A DNA stretch of 21,605 bases, from the IMG/VR virus record IMGVR_UViG_2681813318_000014. One strand, given 5' to 3'. Source of the DNA: a virus (taxonomy: Duplodnaviria; Heunggongvirae; Uroviricota; Caudoviricetes). This document shows, piece by piece, positions 3,148 through 18,784 of this stretch. Position 1 is the first letter of the stretch; every line of letters begins with the position of its first letter. The position numbers were made by a program, and so were the translations under genes. The notes below the pieces were generated by a model that worked only from the letters and a program-made list of their open reading frames with translations, made no database searches and had not been told where the DNA came from.

Positions 3148-5316
3148 ATGGCACAATTTAAAGTTGATGATTTTCTGATTGAGTTAAGTTTTAACTCTCA
3201 GAAAGTTTTAAAAGGCTTGGAAAAAGCCGAGAAACAAACGATGCAGGTAGCATCACGAATTGAGAAGCGATTGAATAAAGCTTTTAAAGTTAACCCTACG
3301 CCTTTAAATGATTCTCTCAAGGTCATGGAAAGAAATGTCGATAAAACTGTTTCCAAGATTGAGCAGCGTCTTAAAAACACTAGAGTGTTTAAGATTAAAA
3401 CGGAAATTGAGGATACTTTAAAGCCACTTAGACAACCAAGACAGCCACGAATTAGCGGCAACAGAGCAATCACAGCAGCTTACTCAGCGAATATGAGCAA
3501 GCTAAAAGGCTTTGACCCTATTTTGCAGAAATACATCAAATCTCAGTTTTACGGGCTATCTGCTAAAGCCGGGTCAATGGATAATTCAAAATTCAATGAG
3601 AAGCTGGCTCAGCTAAATGCTTCAGTCAGAGAAGCAATTGCTAAAGCTAAAGGTCATACATCCACCAGCATTAATAATACAAGCGACGCATTTAATAATC
3701 TTGCAAGCAATGCAATTAAGTTATCTGGTGCATTTTACTCTGTGATGGGTGCTCTTAACGCTTACAAGGCCATTATGAATGCAGGTCTTAAACGAGATTC
3801 CGCACAGAGAGCCGCTAAGTTTGTACTTGGTGATAAAGCATCTGAGGCTGAAACATTTATCAGGGGACTGGCTGACAAGACAGGTCTTAATATCTCTGAA
3901 GGGCTATCAAGCTACGCTAAGTTTGCAGCAGGTGCTCAGGGTTCTATGTCACAGGAACAGACACAGGAGCTATTTGGTAATGCAACGGCTATGAGTCGCT
4001 TAATGGGGCTTAGTAATGATGAGCTAAACGGCATTTTGAAAGCTTTTGAGCAGATGGCTTCTAAGGGCAAGATTCAGGCTGAAGAATTACGTGGGCAGTT
4101 AGGTGACCGTATGGCTGGTGCATTTAAGCTATTCGCTGAAGCACTGGGTATGACTGCTACAGAGCTTGATAAAGCGATGAAAGACGGGAAGATTTTAAGT
4201 AGTGATACTCTCCCTAAAGTCGCTAAACAGATGGGCTTGATGATTGATAAAGCGGGTGGCTGGGCTGAAGTCGCTAAGAGCACCCAGACAGCTTTAGGTA
4301 AGTTAGCAAACAACTGGGATGATACGATGGTGAAAATCTTCTCAGGTTCACAGGATGAGCTAAACGGCTTCTTATCCAGCCTGAGTAACCTGCTTAGTGA
4401 AATGGGGATGAGTTCTTCTATCGCTGGTGATGCTATCGGTGGGCTTATCGACATGCTTAAAGCTGGTGTAGATGATATTCGCGTATTCAATAACACCATT
4501 GAAGGCTGGATTTTACAGGTTAAAAAGTTCTATTACAGCCTTGATGACACTAAACGAAAACTACTTGATGAAGTCGGTGATGGTTTTATCAATTTTGTCA
4601 AAGGTCTTGCTATAGCGTTATCTGCAAAGACGCTATTCAGTGCCACTACAGGGGTTATGAACCTGACAAGAGCAATCACAACGTTAGGTACAAGAGCTAA
4701 TCAGGTGGCTGGTCAGGTAGCTACTGGTAAAGGTGGTGAAAAACTGAAAGGTGTAGCTGGTGGTGTAGGTAGTGCTCTTGCAATTGGTTATGCTGATGAC
4801 GGTTATGAAACAGCGTTAGCATTAGCTTCAATGATTCCACAAATCAGAGGTGTCACCCTTGGTTTATATGCATTGAAGAAAGCACTGGATTTTATGAATC
4901 AGGAAGTAGTCAAAAACGCTAACATGCATCCATCTGGGGTAGGTGTGGGTAGTGACTTTAATCCTGTGTATTCTGGTGACCCTAATAAACCGAATATGAT
5001 TAATGAAGGGTGGATTAAAATTTTTAGTTCAATGGGTGAATTGTTTAACAATGCCACAATGAATATTGCAAGATTCAATCATCCAGAATTAAACAACATT
5101 AAGCAAGAAGCATCACTAACCAGCGCAGATATTCAAAGTCTGAGGGATGAAATCTCTGCTTTAAGTAAGCGTATTCAGGAGCCTGTGAAAGTTTCACTTG
5201 GTGGTGAAGTTGCCATTAAACCAGATGAAACATCGTTTATGACCTTTAGCGGTAATATTTACGACCAATACGCAGAAGCTACGCTATTAAGTTCATCATT
5301 TCCAGAAGATGATTGA
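3148..5316 (+). CDS. tape-measure-domain protein (phage tail length tape measure-like), 722 aa
   Basis: Segment LKAFEQMASKGKIQAEELRGQLGDRMAGAFKLFAEALGMTATELDKAMKDGKILSSDTLP matches the conserved tape-measure motif as recalled from memory; central Gly/Ala-rich hydrophobic segments; GAGGTG RBS upstream. Confidence 0.7.
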   Translation: MAQFKVDDFLIELSFNSQKVLKGLEKAEKQTMQVASRIEKRLNKAFKVNPTPLNDSLKVMERNVDKTVSKIEQRLKNTRVFKIKTEIEDTLKPLRQPRQPRISGNRAITAAYSANMSKLKGFDPILQKYIKSQFYGLSAKAGSMDNSKFNEKLAQLNASVREAIAKAKGHTSTSINNTSDAFNNLASNAIKLSGAFYSVMGALNAYKAIMNAGLKRDSAQRAAKFVLGDKASEAETFIRGLADKTGLNISEGLSSYAKFAAGAQGSMSQEQTQELFGNATAMSRLMGLSNDELNGILKAFEQMASKGKIQAEELRGQLGDRMAGAFKLFAEALGMTATELDKAMKDGKILSSDTLPKVAKQMGLMIDKAGGWAEVAKSTQTALGKLANNWDDTMVKIFSGSQDELNGFLSSLSNLLSEMGMSSSIAGDAIGGLIDMLKAGVDDIRVFNNTIEGWILQVKKFYYSLDDTKRKLLDEVGDGFINFVKGLAIALSAKTLFSATTGVMNLTRAITTLGTRANQVAGQVATGKGGEKLKGVAGGVGSALAIGYADDGYETALALASMIPQIRGVTLGLYALKKALDFMNQEVVKNANMHPSGVGVGSDFNPVYSGDPNKPNMINEGWIKIFSSMGELFNNATMNIARFNHPELNNIKQEASLTSADIQSLRDEISALSKRIQEPVKVSLGGEVAIKPDETSFMTFSGNIYDQYAEATLLSSSFPEDD

Positions 5317-12860: not shown

Positions 12861-13131
12861 TTTTCTCTTCACTCCGATATACAAGGATTACTACACCCCC
12901 TCTGCTGATTGCGCGAGCTGGATCCCCTGGTTCCATGCCGTCAATTCCGAAGGCTTCGGAAAACGCATTCATTGCCTTCTGGCGTTCATCCTGCTTACGG
13001 CGTTTATTCCATTTTTTCAGGAACAACAGCGACAGCCACCGTCCGCTGCAGAACACGATGTAAAAATAACCAAGGAGCGCCAGGCCGACATTCAGGGCCG
13101 TTTCTATGGTTAGTTGTGAGTCAGTTGCCAT
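12814..13131 (-). CDS. small predicted membrane protein (105 aa)
   Basis: ATG 13131; N-terminal transmembrane-like segment LNVGLALLGYFYIVFCSG followed by a basic stretch KKWNKRRKQDERQK. Confidence 0.4.
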   Translation of the reverse strand: MATDSQLTIETALNVGLALLGYFYIVFCSGRWLSLLFLKKWNKRRKQDERQKAMNAFSEAFGIDGMEPGDPARAISRGGVVILVYRSEEKNDDHKTTSRKNHISP

Positions 13132-13369
13132 TTCTTACCTGTTTAAGTAACTGGTTGAACATAACACTTAGGGGATTGCTGTATCCAAACGGCAGATTGT
13201 TTACGCAGTACAGAATCATTTTGTTTTTTTCTCCAGTTCGTACTATTAACCCATTCCACAATAACCGTGATAATTCATTACTGATAGAAGTTGCGCTTCT
13301 TCCAAGTGCGAGGGATATATCTTCTCTACTGCAATCTGGATTTTCCTGGATATACTCGATAACGGTCAT
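13121..13369 (-). CDS. small winged-helix/HTH-like protein (82 aa)
   Basis: Start moved to ATG 13369 (AAGGGA RBS right after the upstream stop); segment CSREDISLALGRSATSISNELSRLLWNGLIV looks like an HTH. Confidence 0.45.
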   Translation of the reverse strand: MTVIEYIQENPDCSREDISLALGRSATSISNELSRLLWNGLIVRTGEKNKMILYCVNNLPFGYSNPLSVMFNQLLKQVRNGN

Positions 13370-13379
13370 GTGGTCCCTT

Positions 13380-13961
13380 TTACTTAATATCTGTTTCGGA
13401 TTGCATGCCATGAGTATTCATTTCGTTAATAATTTCATCCAGAAGGATTTCAAGCCCTTCTCGACCCATATCTGAAAGAATGAAACCTTTATCAGGGGAA
13501 GTAGTGAGCATTTTCTGATAAAGAAACAGCGCTCTTCCCATTCCTTCAGCTTCGCCGTATTTTTGAATTAAATTCCATTCAATATACTGTTGTAAGGCAA
13601 ATCGAATGGGGCCGGGATATATCGTCATAAACCCATACATCCCGTTATATACCACGGCGTGTTCAGTTGTTCCGTGTTCATTCAGGATATCAATTGTGCC
13701 GTTCTTGTCTTCTTCTTCGTTGATGAATGTCGTCACATACAACCATCGCCACTGAGCAACCTTCATCTCAACCGGAAGTTTACCCAGTAATCCTGCTTCG
13801 TCGGCTTGCGCCAGACACTGAAGGATACGTAAACCTCGCACATTAGGAGTATCGAATTCTCCGGCATCCAGACGACGTATGGCGTCGTGATAATCAATCG
13901 TCATACTGCCAGTTCGTATACCATTGGCTGTTGCTTCAGCCTGGAATTCATCGTATTGCAT
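13380..13961 (-). CDS. hypothetical protein (193 aa)
   Basis: ATG 13961 with GAGGAA RBS 8 nt upstream; no recognised motif. Confidence 0.55.
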   Translation of the reverse strand: MQYDEFQAEATANGIRTGSMTIDYHDAIRRLDAGEFDTPNVRGLRILQCLAQADEAGLLGKLPVEMKVAQWRWLYVTTFINEEEDKNGTIDILNEHGTTEHAVVYNGMYGFMTIYPGPIRFALQQYIEWNLIQKYGEAEGMGRALFLYQKMLTTSPDKGFILSDMGREGLEILLDEIINEMNTHGMQSETDIK

Positions 13962-13966
13962 GATAT

Positions 13967-14155
13967 TTATTCCTCATCTTCATCTTCATCTGCTGGTGCA
14001 ATAACGTCATATCCTGCCCTTTCTGCAATAAACAGGAATGTTGAAAGAGTTCCTACAAGTTCATCGTCATGAACATGGCGAATGAATATTACTTTCCCGT
14101 TTTTGATGGTCAGCAATATTCTGGTTTGTTCGTGTTCTGCTGTTTTCTGATGCAT
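13967..14155 (-). CDS. small acidic hypothetical protein (62 aa)
   Basis: ATG 14155 with GGGAGA RBS; C-terminal DEDEDEE tail. Confidence 0.45.
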   Translation of the reverse strand: MHQKTAEHEQTRILLTIKNGKVIFIRHVHDDELVGTLSTFLFIAERAGYDVIAPADEDEDEE

Positions 14156-14157
14156 TA

Positions 14158-14271
14158 TTATCTCCCGTATGCTTTACGCAGAAATAAGCAGGCAATATGC
14201 ATGTAATTTTCACCGTATTGTGCAATAAGGCAGGCGGTCTTGTGTGATGCCATATTCTTTATAAAAGTCAC
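14158..14271 (-). CDS. possible 37-aa ORF in the 195-bp intergenic region
   Basis: GTG start with AGGAGG RBS 7 nt upstream; stop overlaps the RBS of the next gene; weak. Confidence 0.2.
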   Translation of the reverse strand: MTFIKNMASHKTACLIAQYGENYMHIACLFLRKAYGR

Positions 14272-14304
14272 AATAAAGCCTCCTGTGGATTAAGGTTGTA
14301 ACAA

Positions 14305-14346
14305 TCCCCGGCGATAAAACCGCAATAAACGTTCAGGGCATATTTG
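14305..14346 (-). terminator. terminator-like hairpin after the 121-aa gene
   Basis: Minus-strand reading: GCAATAAC...GTTTATTGC stem starting 4 nt after the stop, followed by GGTTTTAT. Confidence 0.35.
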
Positions 14347-14349
14347 TTG

Positions 14350-14715
14350 TTATTGCGCTAATTCTTTTTCGGCAGCAGCTTTTGTATACTCACATGCAAA
14401 ACTCAGAATTTCGCTGCCGAGTGTTTTCGTTTCGTGATTACTGGACATATGTAATACCTGTGTTGCATGCAATAAATGATAAACATTTACCGCAAATGAA
14501 TCAGGCTCCAGACAAATGCCTTCGTAATTATCTTGCTGTGAGGTTGTTTCTGTCATTGCTCCTGAAGTGCATGCGAGCCTGTTTTTGACAATTCTCTTTT
14601 CTCTAATCACTATATCGGCAACATCTATTGCCTTTACAACCTCCGGGAGAAGTTCCGGGTTTGTATAATCAAAGTCATCAACATGGAGAACAGTTATGTT
14701 TTCGAACTTTTTCAT
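14350..14715 (-). CDS. hypothetical protein (121 aa), second gene of the cI-adjacent module
   Basis: ATG 14715 with GAGGAAG RBS 4 nt upstream; no recognised motif. Confidence 0.55.
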   Translation of the reverse strand: MKKFENITVLHVDDFDYTNPELLPEVVKAIDVADIVIREKRIVKNRLACTSGAMTETTSQQDNYEGICLEPDSFAVNVYHLLHATQVLHMSSNHETKTLGSEILSFACEYTKAAAEKELAQ

Positions 14716-14846
14716 GGCTTCCTCAGCTGACTTATATGTTCTGCTATATAGCGAGTCTCAGAAGTGTTTTCATATTGAGACTGTTTCCGCAATGATTGAT
14801 AAAAATGTTCGCATGTACCTTGAAGGGCGAAGCGGCGATTATGTCA

Positions 14847-15392
14847 CTATTGGTATTGGTTCTTCCGCAGAAGAGCTTCGCGAGATAAGGGGCAAACTTG
14901 TTGAGATGCGTCATGGTGTTGCTGCTCCTCACTTTTTGGTTGCTCCGGAGGAGTAACCTCACCAGTTAACAGCCACATCGGATCGCAGCCAAGAATATTT
15001 GCCAGTGGGATAAGCATACTGATAGTTGGTTCATACTCTCCGCTCTCCCACTGGATGATAATTTCTTCATCGAGATCGAGCAGCCTGGCGAGTTCGGCGG
15101 TTGTTAAGCCGCAGGCTTCGCGTTGGGTGCGAAGGTTAACCAGCCAGCTTTCAGGGAAGGATTGTTTTTGTTGTGCAGGAGAAGCAGCAGATAGAGCATA
15201 TTCATGGATAAATTCCATTACCTCAATGCCCAGTTCCTTTGAGCGAGCACAATCCAGAAGATGGAATGTGCGTACAGCACTTAGCAAATTTGCAATATTT
15301 AATGCAAAGGAATCAAGTTCTAAGCCCTTAAGCGTAACACAGCCGCAGTTGATAAAATTAGTTGTTTCTGGAGTTGCTTTTAGTGTCTTCAT
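14847..15392 (-). CDS. two-domain protein with C-terminal XRE-type helix-turn-helix (181 aa from ATG 15392)
   Basis: HTH segment LTTAELARLLDLDEEIIIQWESGEYEPTISMLIPLANILGCDPMWLL; the track start at 15422 is a TTG, the first ATG is at 15392; the N-terminal 90 residues are unassigned. Confidence 0.55.
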   Translation of the reverse strand: MKTLKATPETTNFINCGCVTLKGLELDSFALNIANLLSAVRTFHLLDCARSKELGIEVMEFIHEYALSAASPAQQKQSFPESWLVNLRTQREACGLTTAELARLLDLDEEIIIQWESGEYEPTISMLIPLANILGCDPMWLLTGEVTPPEQPKSEEQQHHDASQQVCPLSREALLRKNQYQ

Positions 15393-15444
15393 ATATCCGC
15401 CAACAATTTTAAATTGAATCAAATCAAGTTATAATTGATGGTGC

Positions 15445-15473
15445 GATATTATGTTTTGGGAAACAGGCTGTCA
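15445..15473 (-). promoter_or_regulatory. PL-like early-left promoter
   Basis: Minus strand TTGACA (complement of 15468-15473), 17-bp spacer, TAATAT (complement of 15445-15450); near-palindrome ATCAAGTTATAATTGAT at 15423-15439 just downstream, operator-like. Confidence 0.45.
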
Positions 15474-15503
15474 AGAAAAAATTGATATCGTATATTTCAG
15501 GCA

Positions 15504-15525
15504 GAAAAAAACGGGCAAAGCCCGT
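15504..15525 (-). terminator. intrinsic terminator after the cI gene
   Basis: Minus-strand hairpin ACGGGC-TTT-GCCCGT followed by a T7 run, 13 nt after the cI stop. Confidence 0.5.
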
Positions 15526-15537
15526 TAAAATCAAAGA

Positions 15538-16227
15538 CTAACCAAATCTGTTTATGTTGAATGGTACTGATGAGATCACTTTAGACTGGATATAAAGCAG
15601 AGCTAACCCCTCTTTTTCGATGCTCCATGGTTGATAATTGGGGTTATCAGATAACACCATGATTTTGCTTCCAATTTTTTGAAGCCTTTTCACGTAGCAT
15701 TCTCCATCAAAACAAAATGCATAAATACCATCGCCATCAAAATAAGTTACTGTCTTATCAAGAAAAAGAAGGTCGCCAGGTGAGATTGTGGGAGCCATAC
15801 TGTCTCCTCTGGCGTTACCTATTTCTATATTTTTGAATGCCCGATTTCCAACAAGACGTCGGGCATATTCAGGATCAAGTTCTATTGAGCGCACTACATC
15901 TATCAAGTCACCACGGACATGAGTTCCATCACCGCAACTAAACTCAACATCAAGGACATTAAATACGACGCTATCTGTTCTTGTCTGGTGTTTCTCTTGC
16001 GAGGAAAAGGTTGGTGAGGAGTCTTCACCTAAGAACCAGGATTGTGGATAACCGCTAATCTCTGATAAATGCGCGAGCTTATCACTCCGTGGAAATGTTT
16101 TTCCTGTTGTCCAGTACTGCACTGATTGCGCACTCACACCTAACTTGCGGGCCAGTTGAGCCTGAGTCCATCCTTTTGCTTTCAGCATCGCGGCTATTCG
16201 ATTTTCCGTGTTTTTGACGTTCTTCAT
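15538..16227 (-). CDS. cI: prophage repressor, cI-like (HTH plus LexA-type S24 peptidase domain), 229 aa
   Basis: N-terminal HTH (WTQAQLARKLGVSAQSVQYW); C-terminal autocleavage domain with Ser in GDSMAPT and Lys in VKRL; divergent from a cro-like gene; start moved to ATG 16227 (track start is TTG). Confidence 0.85.
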   Translation of the reverse strand: MKNVKNTENRIAAMLKAKGWTQAQLARKLGVSAQSVQYWTTGKTFPRSDKLAHLSEISGYPQSWFLGEDSSPTFSSQEKHQTRTDSVVFNVLDVEFSCGDGTHVRGDLIDVVRSIELDPEYARRLVGNRAFKNIEIGNARGDSMAPTISPGDLLFLDKTVTYFDGDGIYAFCFDGECYVKRLQKIGSKIMVLSDNPNYQPWSIEKEGLALLYIQSKVISSVPFNINRFG

Positions 16228-16233
16228 GACCAA

Positions 16234-16360
16234 ATCCTGTGGGTTTCTTTACAAGGATAAATCTTTACTTGATTTTAGTGTATTCGATCCTTTTGTAACT
16301 TGCATGTTAATTTAAACTTGATGTATTCTTGATTTATAAAGTTAATATTGGTGCTTTGTT
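16234..16360. promoter_or_regulatory. immunity-region operator/promoter zone between cI and cro
   Basis: Three imperfect 17-bp sites ending in ACTTGAT/CTTGAT (16257-16273, 16306-16322, 16317-16333) related to the palindrome next to the PL-like promoter; TAATAT -10-like hexamer at 16343-16348. Confidence 0.45.
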
Positions 16361-16633
16361 ATGGAAGGAAATGATTACGACAAACTTCGTGCATTAATTG
16401 CGCAAAATGCCATAGCGCGAAATCTTGGTGTGACGCCGCAAGCGGTGAATCAGTGGTTTTCAAAAAACACAATTCCTGCTCGTTTCGTTTTACGCGTATG
16501 TGAAGTAGTTGCATGGAAGGTCACGCCACATGGCTTAAGGCCAGATCTTTATCCTCACCCTGAAGATGGAATTCCTGATTCGTTACGCAAAATTTCAAAT
16601 CCAAGCTTAGCGCACACAGAGGACGAGAAGTGA
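16361..16633 (+). CDS. cro: Cro-like repressor, YdaS-type HTH (90 aa)
   Basis: Divergent from cI; segment NLGVTPQAVNQWFSKNTIPARFVLRVCEVVAWKVTPHGLRPDLYP fits the YdaS/Cro-type HTH family as recalled. Confidence 0.7.
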   Translation: MEGNDYDKLRALIAQNAIARNLGVTPQAVNQWFSKNTIPARFVLRVCEVVAWKVTPHGLRPDLYPHPEDGIPDSLRKISNPSLAHTEDEK

Positions 16634-16703: not shown

Positions 16704-16997
16704 TTAGCGTTCGCTGAGAAGTTGTTGGTAAGCCTTAAAGGATGCGAACTGCATTCTACCTTCGGCATTGATTCCAATGCCTTCGCTTGTACACCAGGTG
16801 ATGAACTCGGCTGTATCCGCTTCAACTTTAATAACTCGTTGCCCGCTTCTTTCGACACGCTTAATCAATTTTTCAGCGTCGTGTTTCCACTCGGTGTAAC
16901 TGTCGGAGAGCACATCAGCATCAGTAAAAATATTTTTGAGCTCATGATACTGAATCGCATCGCGAAACCAGAATAAACCAACGGCCTGAACTTTCAT
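16704..16997 (-). CDS. hypothetical protein (97 aa) encoded antisense within the early-right operon (moron-like)
   Basis: ATG 16997 with AAGGAGG RBS 7 nt upstream; opposite strand to cro and the rha genes; no recognised motif. Confidence 0.5.
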   Translation of the reverse strand: MKVQAVGLFWFRDAIQYHELKNIFTDADVLSDSYTEWKHDAEKLIKRVERSGQRVIKVEADTAEFITWCTSEGIGINAEGRMQFASFKAYQQLLSER

Positions 16998-17847: not shown

Positions 17848-18232
17848 TCACTCAACATCAATAACGGGGAGCTGTTTCGCATAAAACGGCTCCGAAACAT
17901 CCAAGAACAGTTCTAAAGATATCAGCAGCTATATGATCATTTCAAGACCAAATATTGATTCTGCAATTTCGGGACGTTACACTGTCTCTGCACCTTATAA
18001 AGCGGGTGCCGGGGGTCGCAGCCCGGAATTGTCAACGGCGATATATGACGCGCCAGCGTCTTTTTTATCGTCCGCGCTCACGCACGCCAGAATTATGGTG
18101 GGCTGGGCAGGGGAGCCGAAAGGCTCGCCGGTCTCCGTTGACGCCGGTACTGCGAACCCTGTTCAGTCTGCCACCAGTGAGTTTCGCAGCTCCGGTGGTG
18201 GAAGTTTTCCACAGTCAACGGAGGCTGCCATC

Positions 18233-18784
18233 ATGGCTACGATCCCAACCCTCACTCAACCTGAAATTGCCATCGTTGATGGTCAGGCTGTTACTTCATC
18301 CCTGGCTGTTGCCAACTTCTTCTCCAAGCGTCATGACGATGTACTGAAAAAGATCCGCACGCTTGAATGCTCCGCATCATTCACTGCCCGCAATTTTTCG
18401 GTGAGTGATTACACCGATTGCACAGGCCGCAAACTACCTTGCTATCAAATCACCCGTGATGGCTTCGCGTTCCTTGCTATGGGCTTTACTGGCAAACGTG
18501 CAGCCCGGTTCAAAGAGGCATACATCAACGCCTTTAACCTGATGGAGAAGAGTTTATCAGGTGCCGATGCGTCTGATATGTCAGCTGTCGCACGAAACGC
18601 CAGAGGCGTATACCTGCATTTGCGTGAAATCCATCAAATCTGGACAAGCCAGCTTTATCCAATGCTTAAGGCCGTTGAATCTCCGCTGGCTAGCAAACTG
18701 TACGACCGTGTTGGTGATGCTGTTTTTGGCGCTGCACTTGTTGATTCCAGGCTGAATGGTTCTGACAAGGAGGTTCGCCCATGA
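18233..18784 (+). CDS. second Rha-family-like regulatory protein (183 aa)
   Basis: ATG 18233 with GGAGG 9 nt upstream; motif AVTSSLAVANFFSKRHDDVLKKIRTLE; the track's longer version (from 17933) adds a GC-rich low-complexity extension with no RBS. Confidence 0.65.
   Translation: MATIPTLTQPEIAIVDGQAVTSSLAVANFFSKRHDDVLKKIRTLECSASFTARNFSVSDYTDCTGRKLPCYQITRDGFAFLAMGFTGKRAARFKEAYINAFNLMEKSLSGADASDMSAVARNARGVYLHLREIHQIWTSQLYPMLKAVESPLASKLYDRVGDAVFGAALVDSRLNGSDKEVRP

Follow-up and report, generated by a model that had tools for sequence, protein, structure and literature searches.

The DNA analysed here is a window of 21,605 nucleotides from a tailed phage (IMG/VR record IMGVR_UViG_2681813318_000014). 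Between positions 14305 and 15473, to the left of the cI repressor gene, it carries two leftward genes, one for an XRE-type regulator (gene 1) and one for a protein of 121 amino acids (gene 2). The best explanation of this region is that it heads the early-left (PL) operon, repressed by cI, of a phiP27-like lambdoid prophage without an N gene. By its sequence, gene 2 is a member of the regulator's own family that is made solely of N-terminal modules and is devoid of the DNA-binding domain, and a conserved, overlooked gene lies antisense between the two. The window stretch is 100% identical to a prophage located beside yecE in Escherichia coli AF39 and 99.6% identical to the induced phage PhiR49_2 (ECOR13). 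A preliminary description, made from the window alone, had taken the two genes for a self-contained module placed between cI and the early-left operon; they are instead the start of that operon. The coordinates are collected in Table 1.

Directly after the cI terminator there is, as had been described, a consensus promoter with a palindromic operator-like site (TTGACA, 17-nt spacer, TAATAT; palindrome at 15423-15439). The site is not the only one, as a second copy at 15470-15486 overlaps the -35 hexamer. When up to two mismatches were allowed, the motif ATCAAGN5ATTGAT was found at nine sites in the whole 21.6-kb window. Five of the nine, starting at 15423, 15470, 16257, 16306, and 16336, are clustered at the promoter and in the cI-cro interval, within about 240 bp of the window in total, and three of these are located between cI and cro (16257-16273, 16306-16322, and 16336-16352). 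The promoter and terminator scans of the region stood at the level of chance, with 6 promoter-like elements against 7.2 expected and 4 terminator-like elements against 2.3 expected. The credibility of the two calls comes from their position and from the operators, and not from the scan scores.

The motifs change with the type of the repressor. In phage phiP27 the cI is unrelated, and other repeats (TTGATAC.T.AG...) are present upstream of L10, the homologue of gene 1, and again in the cI-cro intergenic region of that phage. At the same time, phiP27 retains the part of gene 1 encoding the helix-turn-helix (HTH) domain and the entire gene 2 at ~94% nucleotide identity. For three further cI types as well, the two intergenic regions share a motif particular to the type, and the left region has a promoter-like element. 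Altogether, in phiP27, L054, L085, and L081 the motifs change with the cI type and the HTH of the regulator is unchanged. The motif was quantified for the type found in the window, while those of the other cI types were read by eye. An automatic comparison of the best 15-mers of the two intergenic regions was non-discriminating, with 11-13 of 15 positions matching both within and across immunity types and with the cI start of phiP27 over-extended. Since the operator sites track cI and not the HTH of gene 1, they are taken as cI operators. The promoter left of cI would then be PL with its OL, the palindrome being one of two cI operators there. Repression of PL by cI is predicted from this arrangement, and genes behind such an operator-flanked promoter should be kept silent in a lysogen and belong to the earliest transcripts upon infection or induction.

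On the map of phage lambda, rexAB is found between cI and PL, on one transcript with cI in the lysogen, and N follows downstream of PL/OL. Judged by this layout, gene 1 would occupy the position of N and not that of rexAB, although the preliminary description had proposed a position of the rexAB/sieB type. Like N, gene 1 comes first behind a cI-repressed leftward promoter that directly follows the cI unit and whose -35 and -10 elements are flanked by operators. Unlike N, which is an arginine-rich RNA-binding antiterminator, its product is a DNA-binding protein of the HTH_3 family without an N-like match in PHROG or Pfam, and a lambda N-type antiterminator was rejected as a candidate. Pfam and PHROG searches of the window revealed no N homologue, and the prophage has a single visible antiterminator, quuD of the Q type, located in the source record beyond the window. 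The group has no N gene, and what its first early-left genes do is part of its lysis-lysogeny circuit. With rexAB and with the sieB genes of P22 and lambda the locus shares the general neighbourhood left of cI and a variable gene content. However, its genes are located beyond PL/OL and show neither Rex or SieB homology nor a PADLOC defence match. Cargo of the rexAB type was rejected because cI is followed by a terminator and the genes are downstream of a promoter flanked by cI-type operators.

The gene 1 product has the two domains that had been described, an N-terminal part without a Pfam match and, C-terminal to it, an XRE-type HTH (HTH_3, E 4.7e-11). The modelled alpha-hairpin of the N-terminal part is likely a dimerisation module. 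No non-HTH Pfam family was found for either protein at E-values up to 0.1. The earlier statement that neither protein belongs to a nameable family thus holds for the non-HTH parts in Pfam, but PHROG does name families, phrog_4836 ('CII-like regulator', E 2e-78) for gene 1 and phrog_5451 for gene 2, and a domain of ~47 amino acids common to the two proteins had been missed. In Foldseek searches against the PDB, gene 1 matched P22 C2 and 434 Cro with a template modelling (TM) score of 0.9, over the HTH portion only, and the PDB sequence search likewise returned HTH matches only. Among 160 homologues the HTH is near-invariant, and it is combined with about eight unrelated-looking types of N-terminal module and with a variable C-terminus. 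The commonest form has a second HTH and a size of about 230 amino acids; its cluster (P0033) is present on at least 1,000 contigs. In relatives, the C-terminal tail of gene 1 is replaced by 7-10 residues or by the second HTH. We infer that gene 1 encodes a DNA-binding XRE regulator. Because the HTH is near-invariant across phages of different immunity, the DNA target should be common to those phages and different from the immunity operators. A study on the regulatory regions of Shiga toxin (Stx) phages reported an unexplained 'CI clade VIII' with two HTH domains and without the S24 domain (PMC8951638). Possibly these are members of the gene 1 family in its two-HTH form (230-242 aa) to which the name CI was wrongly given.

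The DNA encoding the HTH core is 92-100% identical among prophages with unrelated flanks. When the interval 13900-16400 was used as the query, the match boundaries in 372 E. coli genomes fell at query positions 1076-1080 and 1234-1243, at both ends of this core. The core therefore acts as a joint at which a segment on the immunity side and a downstream segment recombine, a case in point for the 'linker' idea of modular phage evolution. On the immunity side, the types of the N-terminal module and of cI match 1:1 over 90 loci: A with cI-1 in 52 (51 A and one A2), B with cI-2 in 27, C with cI-3 in 6, D with cI-4 in 4, and F with cI-5 in 1. Such a match is expected from linkage, because the N-terminal domain is encoded ~150 bp from cI with no homologous sequence between them, the first shared homology being the HTH segment.

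Every relative recovered through the cI side carries the regulator. Gene 2 is absent in L037-39 and L046; in L040-44 and L048-49 it is fused to the regulator, stop-to-start, and in phiP27 other inserts separate the two. In Stx2a phages, the two-HTH regulator overlaps at its stop codon with a hairpin-only gene of 66 amino acids. Distant relatives keep the order cro, cI, regulator, HTH-less paralogues. One of them, L092 (1983-4316), has an array of five genes with the module compositions X+HTH, alpha/beta+HTH+HTH, alpha/beta+X, X, and X+X, plus the antisense gene, and another, L093 (3501-4757), has an X+HTH+HTH regulator followed by a double-hairpin X+X gene. The variability among close relatives that the preliminary description had suggested looking for is thus real; what varies is gene 2, the antisense gene, and the end modules of the regulator. 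The opposite outcome that it had named, that both genes are conserved core genes of early regulation present in all relatives, applies largely to gene 1 and in part to gene 2, which is common but dispensable. As a separate observation, an insert of ~360 bp in phiP27 (L002), which also holds L09, contains at about 4836-5079, on the minus strand and opposite in orientation to L09, an unannotated 80-aa open reading frame (ORF; MKNCDAYHICLIGELL...). Its beginning and the stop codon of L10 overlap (ATGA). The ORF is present again in L030-36 and L045 and has no detectable similarity to the hairpin family.

The relationship between the two genes resides in the hairpin. In BLASTP, residues 24-70 of gene 1 and 69-115 of gene 2 are 43% identical over 47 amino acids with an E-value of 9e-10. 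The hairpins of module types A, C, and D and that of gene 2 form one homologous family (A against C/D profiles, hhalign probability 97.7%, E 2e-12), to which the type B module shows no detectable homology. Gene 2 had no match in Pfam, NCBIfam, or PADLOC, no HTH match, and no PDB sequence match at E-values up to 10, and an exhaustive profile search of 1.8 billion representatives returned only 38 relatives. The two modules of gene 2 are found elsewhere joined to HTH domains: its type of alpha/beta domain heads the HTH-HTH proteins P0163, P0167, and P0170, and a gene 2-like hairpin heads the HTH proteins P0177, P0179, and P0182, of which P0179 carries hairpin, HTH, alpha/beta remnant, HTH, and HTH in a single chain. 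Hairpin-only proteins of 60-68 amino acids are common among the relatives of gene 2. The gene is called at two lengths, 121 amino acids in PhiR49_2 and in phiP27 (L08), and 68 amino acids in RefSeq PGAP, starting at the internal ATG of M54 (14554-14556). The full-length ORF is kept in diverged homologues and has a better ribosome-binding site than the M54 start. It is conceivable that two products are made, one of 121 amino acids and a hairpin-only one of 68, the latter resembling the 66-aa genes of the Stx2a phages.

An XRE regulator with a short helical domain, predicted to serve oligomerisation, next to a gene that is homologous to this domain and has no HTH recalls the SinR/SinI pair of Bacillus subtilis, where, according to a passage in PMC3163267, SinI forms a heterodimer with SinR and thereby abolishes DNA binding. 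In gene 1, however, the order of the domains is reversed, with the hairpin N-terminal to the HTH. Furthermore, there is no sequence relationship and no Pfam SinI match, gene 2 has the extra alpha/beta domain, and the genes belong to a phage early operon under predicted cI control in which neighbouring hairpin types are shuffled. In the arbitrium phages of Bacillus, the small helical protein AimX antagonises the XRE repressor AimC and covers its helical oligomerisation domain (bioRxiv 10.1101/2025.11.23.689978). A small gene with a transcript antisense to the regulator gene also takes part at that locus, which is loosely reminiscent of the plus-strand ORF that overlaps the 3' end of gene 1. On the other hand, that system belongs to another host and another group of phages and is not homologous; gene 1 is an early PL gene beside a classical cI/Cro switch and not a lysogeny repressor as AimC is, and the sequence of the plus-strand ORF does not look like a helical mimic.

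By analogy to these systems, gene 1 and gene 2 could form a SinR/SinI-like pair of a regulator and an antagonist that is its truncated paralogue. Gene 1 would dimerise through its hairpin and bind a DNA site that differently immune phages have in common. Gene 2, like the hairpin-only proteins of relatives, would form mixed oligomers with the regulator through the hairpin, and these would titrate or re-time its DNA binding, as SinI does with SinR or AimX with AimC. The recurrence of hairpin-only partners beside the regulator, in the Stx2a phages, L092, and L093, was counted in favour of such a pair. If gene 2 does mimic the hairpin of the regulator, antagonism of the SinI/AimX type would exist in lambdoid coliphages as well.

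We hold the SinR/SinI-like pair as a tentative reading, because the co-variation between the hairpin types of neighbouring genes that it predicts fails. A-like gene 2 is found behind regulators of types A, B, C, and F alike, L084 combines a type-B regulator with a D-like gene 2, and L085 combines a type-D regulator with an A-like hairpin gene. As type B is unrelated to the hairpin family, the proposed pairing cannot work there as stated. Further points that weigh against the pair are the relatives without gene 2, the two-HTH forms of the regulator, which may need no dimerisation domain, and the structure searches on the hairpins, which found generic helical hairpins only. Finally, the repression of PL by cI was deduced from sequence.

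Several of these observations would also be accommodated if the hairpin were a generic dimerisation module reused by domain shuffling, with gene 1 and gene 2 acting independently and the alpha/beta domain having an unrelated job such as host takeover. The shuffling of neighbouring hairpin types, the dispensability of gene 2 in some relatives, and the generic nature of the structural matches are all in line with this, and adjacency would explain all the associations, since the variant of gene 2 goes with the adjacent 3' part of the regulator gene and the N-terminal domain goes with cI. Yet the hairpin-only proteins of 60-68 amino acids hold nothing else and must act by binding something. In addition, the hairpins of three small proteins derive from those of regulator types A (43-50% identity), D (57%, E 4e-17), and E (29%, E 1e-6). 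One gene 2 has swapped its A-like hairpin for a D-like one and kept the alpha/beta domain, suggesting that the type of the hairpin matters, and the P0179 fusion joins both gene types in one chain. Altogether, we regard independent action of the two genes as somewhat unlikely.

The 1:1 match over the 90 loci could also indicate that the hairpins are immunity-specific recognition modules, so that the N-terminal domain of the regulator contacts the cI (or Cro) of its own phage and the free hairpins target the regulator or repressor of particular immunity groups, including those of other phages that are co-resident or superinfecting. The array would in that case serve competition or cross-talk among prophages. 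Free hairpins of foreign type do occur, as the type-B regulator of L084 is accompanied by D-like and E-like genes and the type-D regulator of L085 by an A-like gene, and antirepressors acting in trans between prophages are known (PMC3121763; PMC10432266). A comparable case is the MOR/CI switch of phage TP901-1 (PMC11149083), where a small HTH protein is likewise the product of the first gene of the early operon and MOR contacts the repressor of its own phage, which would fit the link between the N-terminal domain and cI. In the window, a Cro-type gene is already present on the PR side, and there is no MOR homology. Linkage alone, however, predicts the 1:1 match, and the free hairpin of the window is of the phage's own type. 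Immunity-specific recognition therefore appears to us distinctly unlikely.

Gene 1 could alternatively be the equivalent of lambda CII, an early activator of the establishment promoters of cI and int, with gene 2 as a CIII-like stabiliser or modulator. This would agree with the label of phrog_4836, with the annotation of ASU11 as 'putative CII repressor', and with the lack of a visible CII homologue in the PR operon of the window. The invariant HTH, too, implies a target common across immunity types, for example an int-proximal promoter. Nevertheless, the protein matched only the generic HTH_3 and not Phage_CII in Pfam, for which reason membership of the lambda CII family was rejected; the PHROG label is an annotation rather than a test, no candidate for the binding site emerged, and gene 2 is dissimilar to CIII. 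We consider the CII/CIII assignment improbable. A CII-like role for gene 1 is nonetheless compatible with the regulator-antagonist pair and does not exclude it.

Between the two genes a spacer of 130 bp, followed by a 121-aa protein, had been described. The gap measures 131 bp and the 121-aa ORF is real, but the gap is coding, as it constitutes the 5' half of a plus-strand ORF at 14696-14956. This ORF converges on gene 1, with whose last 110 nt it overlaps, and shares 20 nt with gene 2 in a head-to-head arrangement. In comparison with L089 (70% nucleotide identity), the ratio of nonsynonymous to synonymous changes (pN/pS) of the plus-strand ORF is 0.35 with 64% amino-acid identity, against 1.15 and 38% for the frame of the gene 1 tail. 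In comparison with L092 (71% nucleotide identity, 72 codons) it is again 0.35, against 2.0 for the tail frame over codons 34-72. The other frame with a low pN/pS is solely the mirror frame of the plus-strand ORF and is riddled with stop codons. The phrog_6104-type family comprises 18 protein clusters of 50-88 amino acids, and 22 invariant residues, including CFHIET, RMYL, and GDYV, are common to the ORF of the window and ten near-full-length homologues (82-88 amino acids) from Escherichia, Salmonella, and Citrobacter. At four loci a nonsense mutation cuts 18 residues off the gene 1 tail, and the plus-strand ORF stays intact with a V-to-I change only.

Judged by this conservation, the plus-strand ORF is a real gene, although it is unannotated both by PGAP and in the PhiR49_2 record. 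The last ~34 residues of gene 1 are unconstrained read-through across the antisense gene and an annotation artefact, to judge from the pN/pS contrast, the tolerated nonsense mutation, the disorder in the AlphaFold2 (AF2) model, and the replacement of the tail in relatives. For annotation this means that an antisense gene was overlooked, that gene 2 is called at two lengths, and that the tail of the regulator is artefactual. A candidate promoter region of the plus-strand ORF has a TATAAT (14664-14669), with a GGAG at 14685-14688, and lacks a -35 match; the conservation of these elements is only partial. As leftward transcription from PL would run antisense through the ORF, it may be expressed reciprocally to the operon. 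An inverted repeat, AGTCTCA-N15-TGAGACT, is located at 14754-14782, both in the gene 2 leader and inside the plus-strand ORF. Its arms are kept in L089 and L092 and the loop is altered. The RNA is not unusually stable, as shuffled versions of the interval between the two genes fold just as well (z = +0.49), and the repeat could be a protein-binding site or a mere coding constraint.

The function originally suggested for the two genes was exclusion or defence cargo, which would be expressed in the lysogen like rexAB or sieB; a related idea is a type II toxin-antitoxin system with an HTH antitoxin. The gene content is indeed variable among relatives, an HTH protein followed by a small protein is a toxin-antitoxin-like layout, and PaaR2-PaaA2-ParE2 is located in an immunity region of CP-933P (PMC8630535). 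The genes are, however, downstream of the presumed cI operators on PL and predicted to be off in the lysogen. PADLOC and Pfam found nothing beyond the HTH, the PADLOC matches of gene 1 being confined to the HTH portion of the RmrA, HTH_VI, and CapH models. Moreover, gene 2 is built of regulator modules and not of a toxin fold, it is freely lost or replaced and the HTH gene is retained, a conserved antisense gene lies between the two, and no terminator delimits the module. We therefore judge defence cargo or a toxin-antitoxin system to be very improbable. Of the specific candidates, an MqsA-like gene 1 was rejected since the model match covers the HTH only, with an E-value of 2.9e-4 far below the cutoff, and a type II system of the HipB, MqsA, or HigA type was rejected since a toxin-family search found none for gene 2 and there is no obligate co-occurrence. 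A separately expressed cargo gene, if there is any, would speculatively be better matched by the plus-strand ORF than by the two minus-strand genes, and the PADLOC search on this ORF gave one match at chance level (Cas11a, E 0.03).

The regulator, its paralogues, and the antisense gene may be parts of one scheme, a hypervariable 'hairpin code', in which the regulator has an immunity-specific hairpin, one to several free hairpins per phage, alone or joined to the small alpha/beta domain, act as type-specific decoys for the own or for foreign types, and the antisense gene is the reciprocal, lysogen-side component of the same switch. We give this combined scheme little chance of being correct. 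If true, a phage could use the decoys to set the timing of its regulator and to undermine, or listen in on, related phages in the same cell, and there would be a new layer of competition between prophages in polylysogenic E. coli, including its Stx phages.

A terminator-like hairpin had been reported after gene 2. The terminator scan found none 3' of gene 2 on the minus strand, and the 91-nt stretch there folds like its shuffles (z = -0.18). Instead, the operon runs on past gene 2 into an ORF of 37 amino acids and further early-left genes. Rfam had no match within 14000-15600.

At least a fragment of the locus is carried by 372 of 5,426 complete E. coli genomes (about 7%), and the locus occurs in phages associated with Stx2a, Stx2d, and Stx2e. 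Early regulation in the Stx phages that carry it governs the release of the toxin. No paper describing the regulator, gene 2, or the antisense gene was found in a literature search.

Table 1. Positions of the features of the region in the 21,605-nt window.
Feature	Position	Strand	Basis or remark
Next ORF of the operon (37 aa from a GTG start), strong AGGAGG site	14158..14271	-	annotated in PhiR49_2
Gene 2, HTH-less paralogue, 121 aa	14350..14715	-	phrog_5451, E 2e-83; C-terminal half matches phrog_4587
Gene 2, predicted alpha-hairpin	aa 66-120, 14356-14520	-	AF2 model, hairpin at aa 71-120; homology to the gene 1 hairpin
Gene 2, predicted small alpha/beta domain	aa 1-50, 14566-14715	-	AF2 model, domain at aa 9-50; disordered linker after it
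Conserved antisense small gene, 86 aa	14696..14956	+	phrog_6104, full-length match, E 1.4e-49
Gene 1, early-left XRE regulator, 181 aa from ATG (also the PGAP start)	14847..15392	-	Pfam HTH_3, phrog_4836
Gene 1, tail, predicted disordered read-through	aa 148-181, 14850-14951	-	AF2, predicted local distance difference test (pLDDT) <50
Gene 1, HTH	aa 81-143, about 14964-15152	-	Pfam HTH_3 aa 87-141, E 4.7e-11; AF2 pLDDT 80-93
HTH-coding core of gene 1, recombination joint	14975..15134	-	match boundaries at core ends; HTH residues near-invariant in 45 homologues
Gene 1, predicted N-terminal alpha-hairpin	aa 23-69, about 15186-15326	-	AF2 helices 23-45 and 49-69, pLDDT about 82
Putative operator copy OL-a, palindrome ATCAAGTTATAATTGAT	15423..15439	strandless	adjoins the -10 hexamer on its downstream side
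Putative PL promoter	15446..15474	-	TTGACA 15474-15469, 17-nt spacer, TAATAT 15451-15446; 10/12 positions (promoter scan)
Putative operator copy OL-b, GTCAAGAAAAAATTGAT	15470..15486	strandless	overlaps the -35 hexamer; 1 mismatch to ATCAAGN5ATTGAT; direct repeat D10
Predicted intrinsic terminator of cI	15500..15526	-	stem AACGGGCTTTGCCCGTT 15526-15510, then T run; 7 pairs, 5 G-C (terminator scan)
cI repressor, immunity type 'cI-1'	15538..16227	-	Pfam Peptidase_S24 4e-17 and HTH_3 5e-8; 229 aa, PGAP name 'XRE family transcriptional regulator'

Further along the early-left operon, the minus strand encodes a 62-aa protein at 13967-14155 (phrog_340) that is weakly similar to the C-termini of anti-repressor PHROGs, and at 13121-13411 a 96-aa winged-helix protein that matches the MarR-like phrog_1687 (E 1e-24) and, weakly, the 'Ren-like exclusion protein' phrog_142 (E 5e-5). 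In the PR operon, Rfam gave gathering-level matches on the plus strand to isrK (17990-18066, 58.7 bits) and to the C4 antisense RNA (18091-18178, 78.8 bits), both within the 5' part of a 283-aa 'Rha family' ORF (17933-18784). The region 17990-18178 looks like an antirepressor module of the P1/P7 immI type under C4 RNA control, and the N-terminus of the 'Rha family' ORF is probably over-called. Finally, a 97-aa reverse ORF lies between cro and the first Rha gene (16704-16997, minus strand; phrog_4753, E 1.8e-49) and is followed by a terminator-like hairpin at 16697-16673. It is absent from the otherwise near-identical PhiR49_2 and looks like a moron-type insertion.

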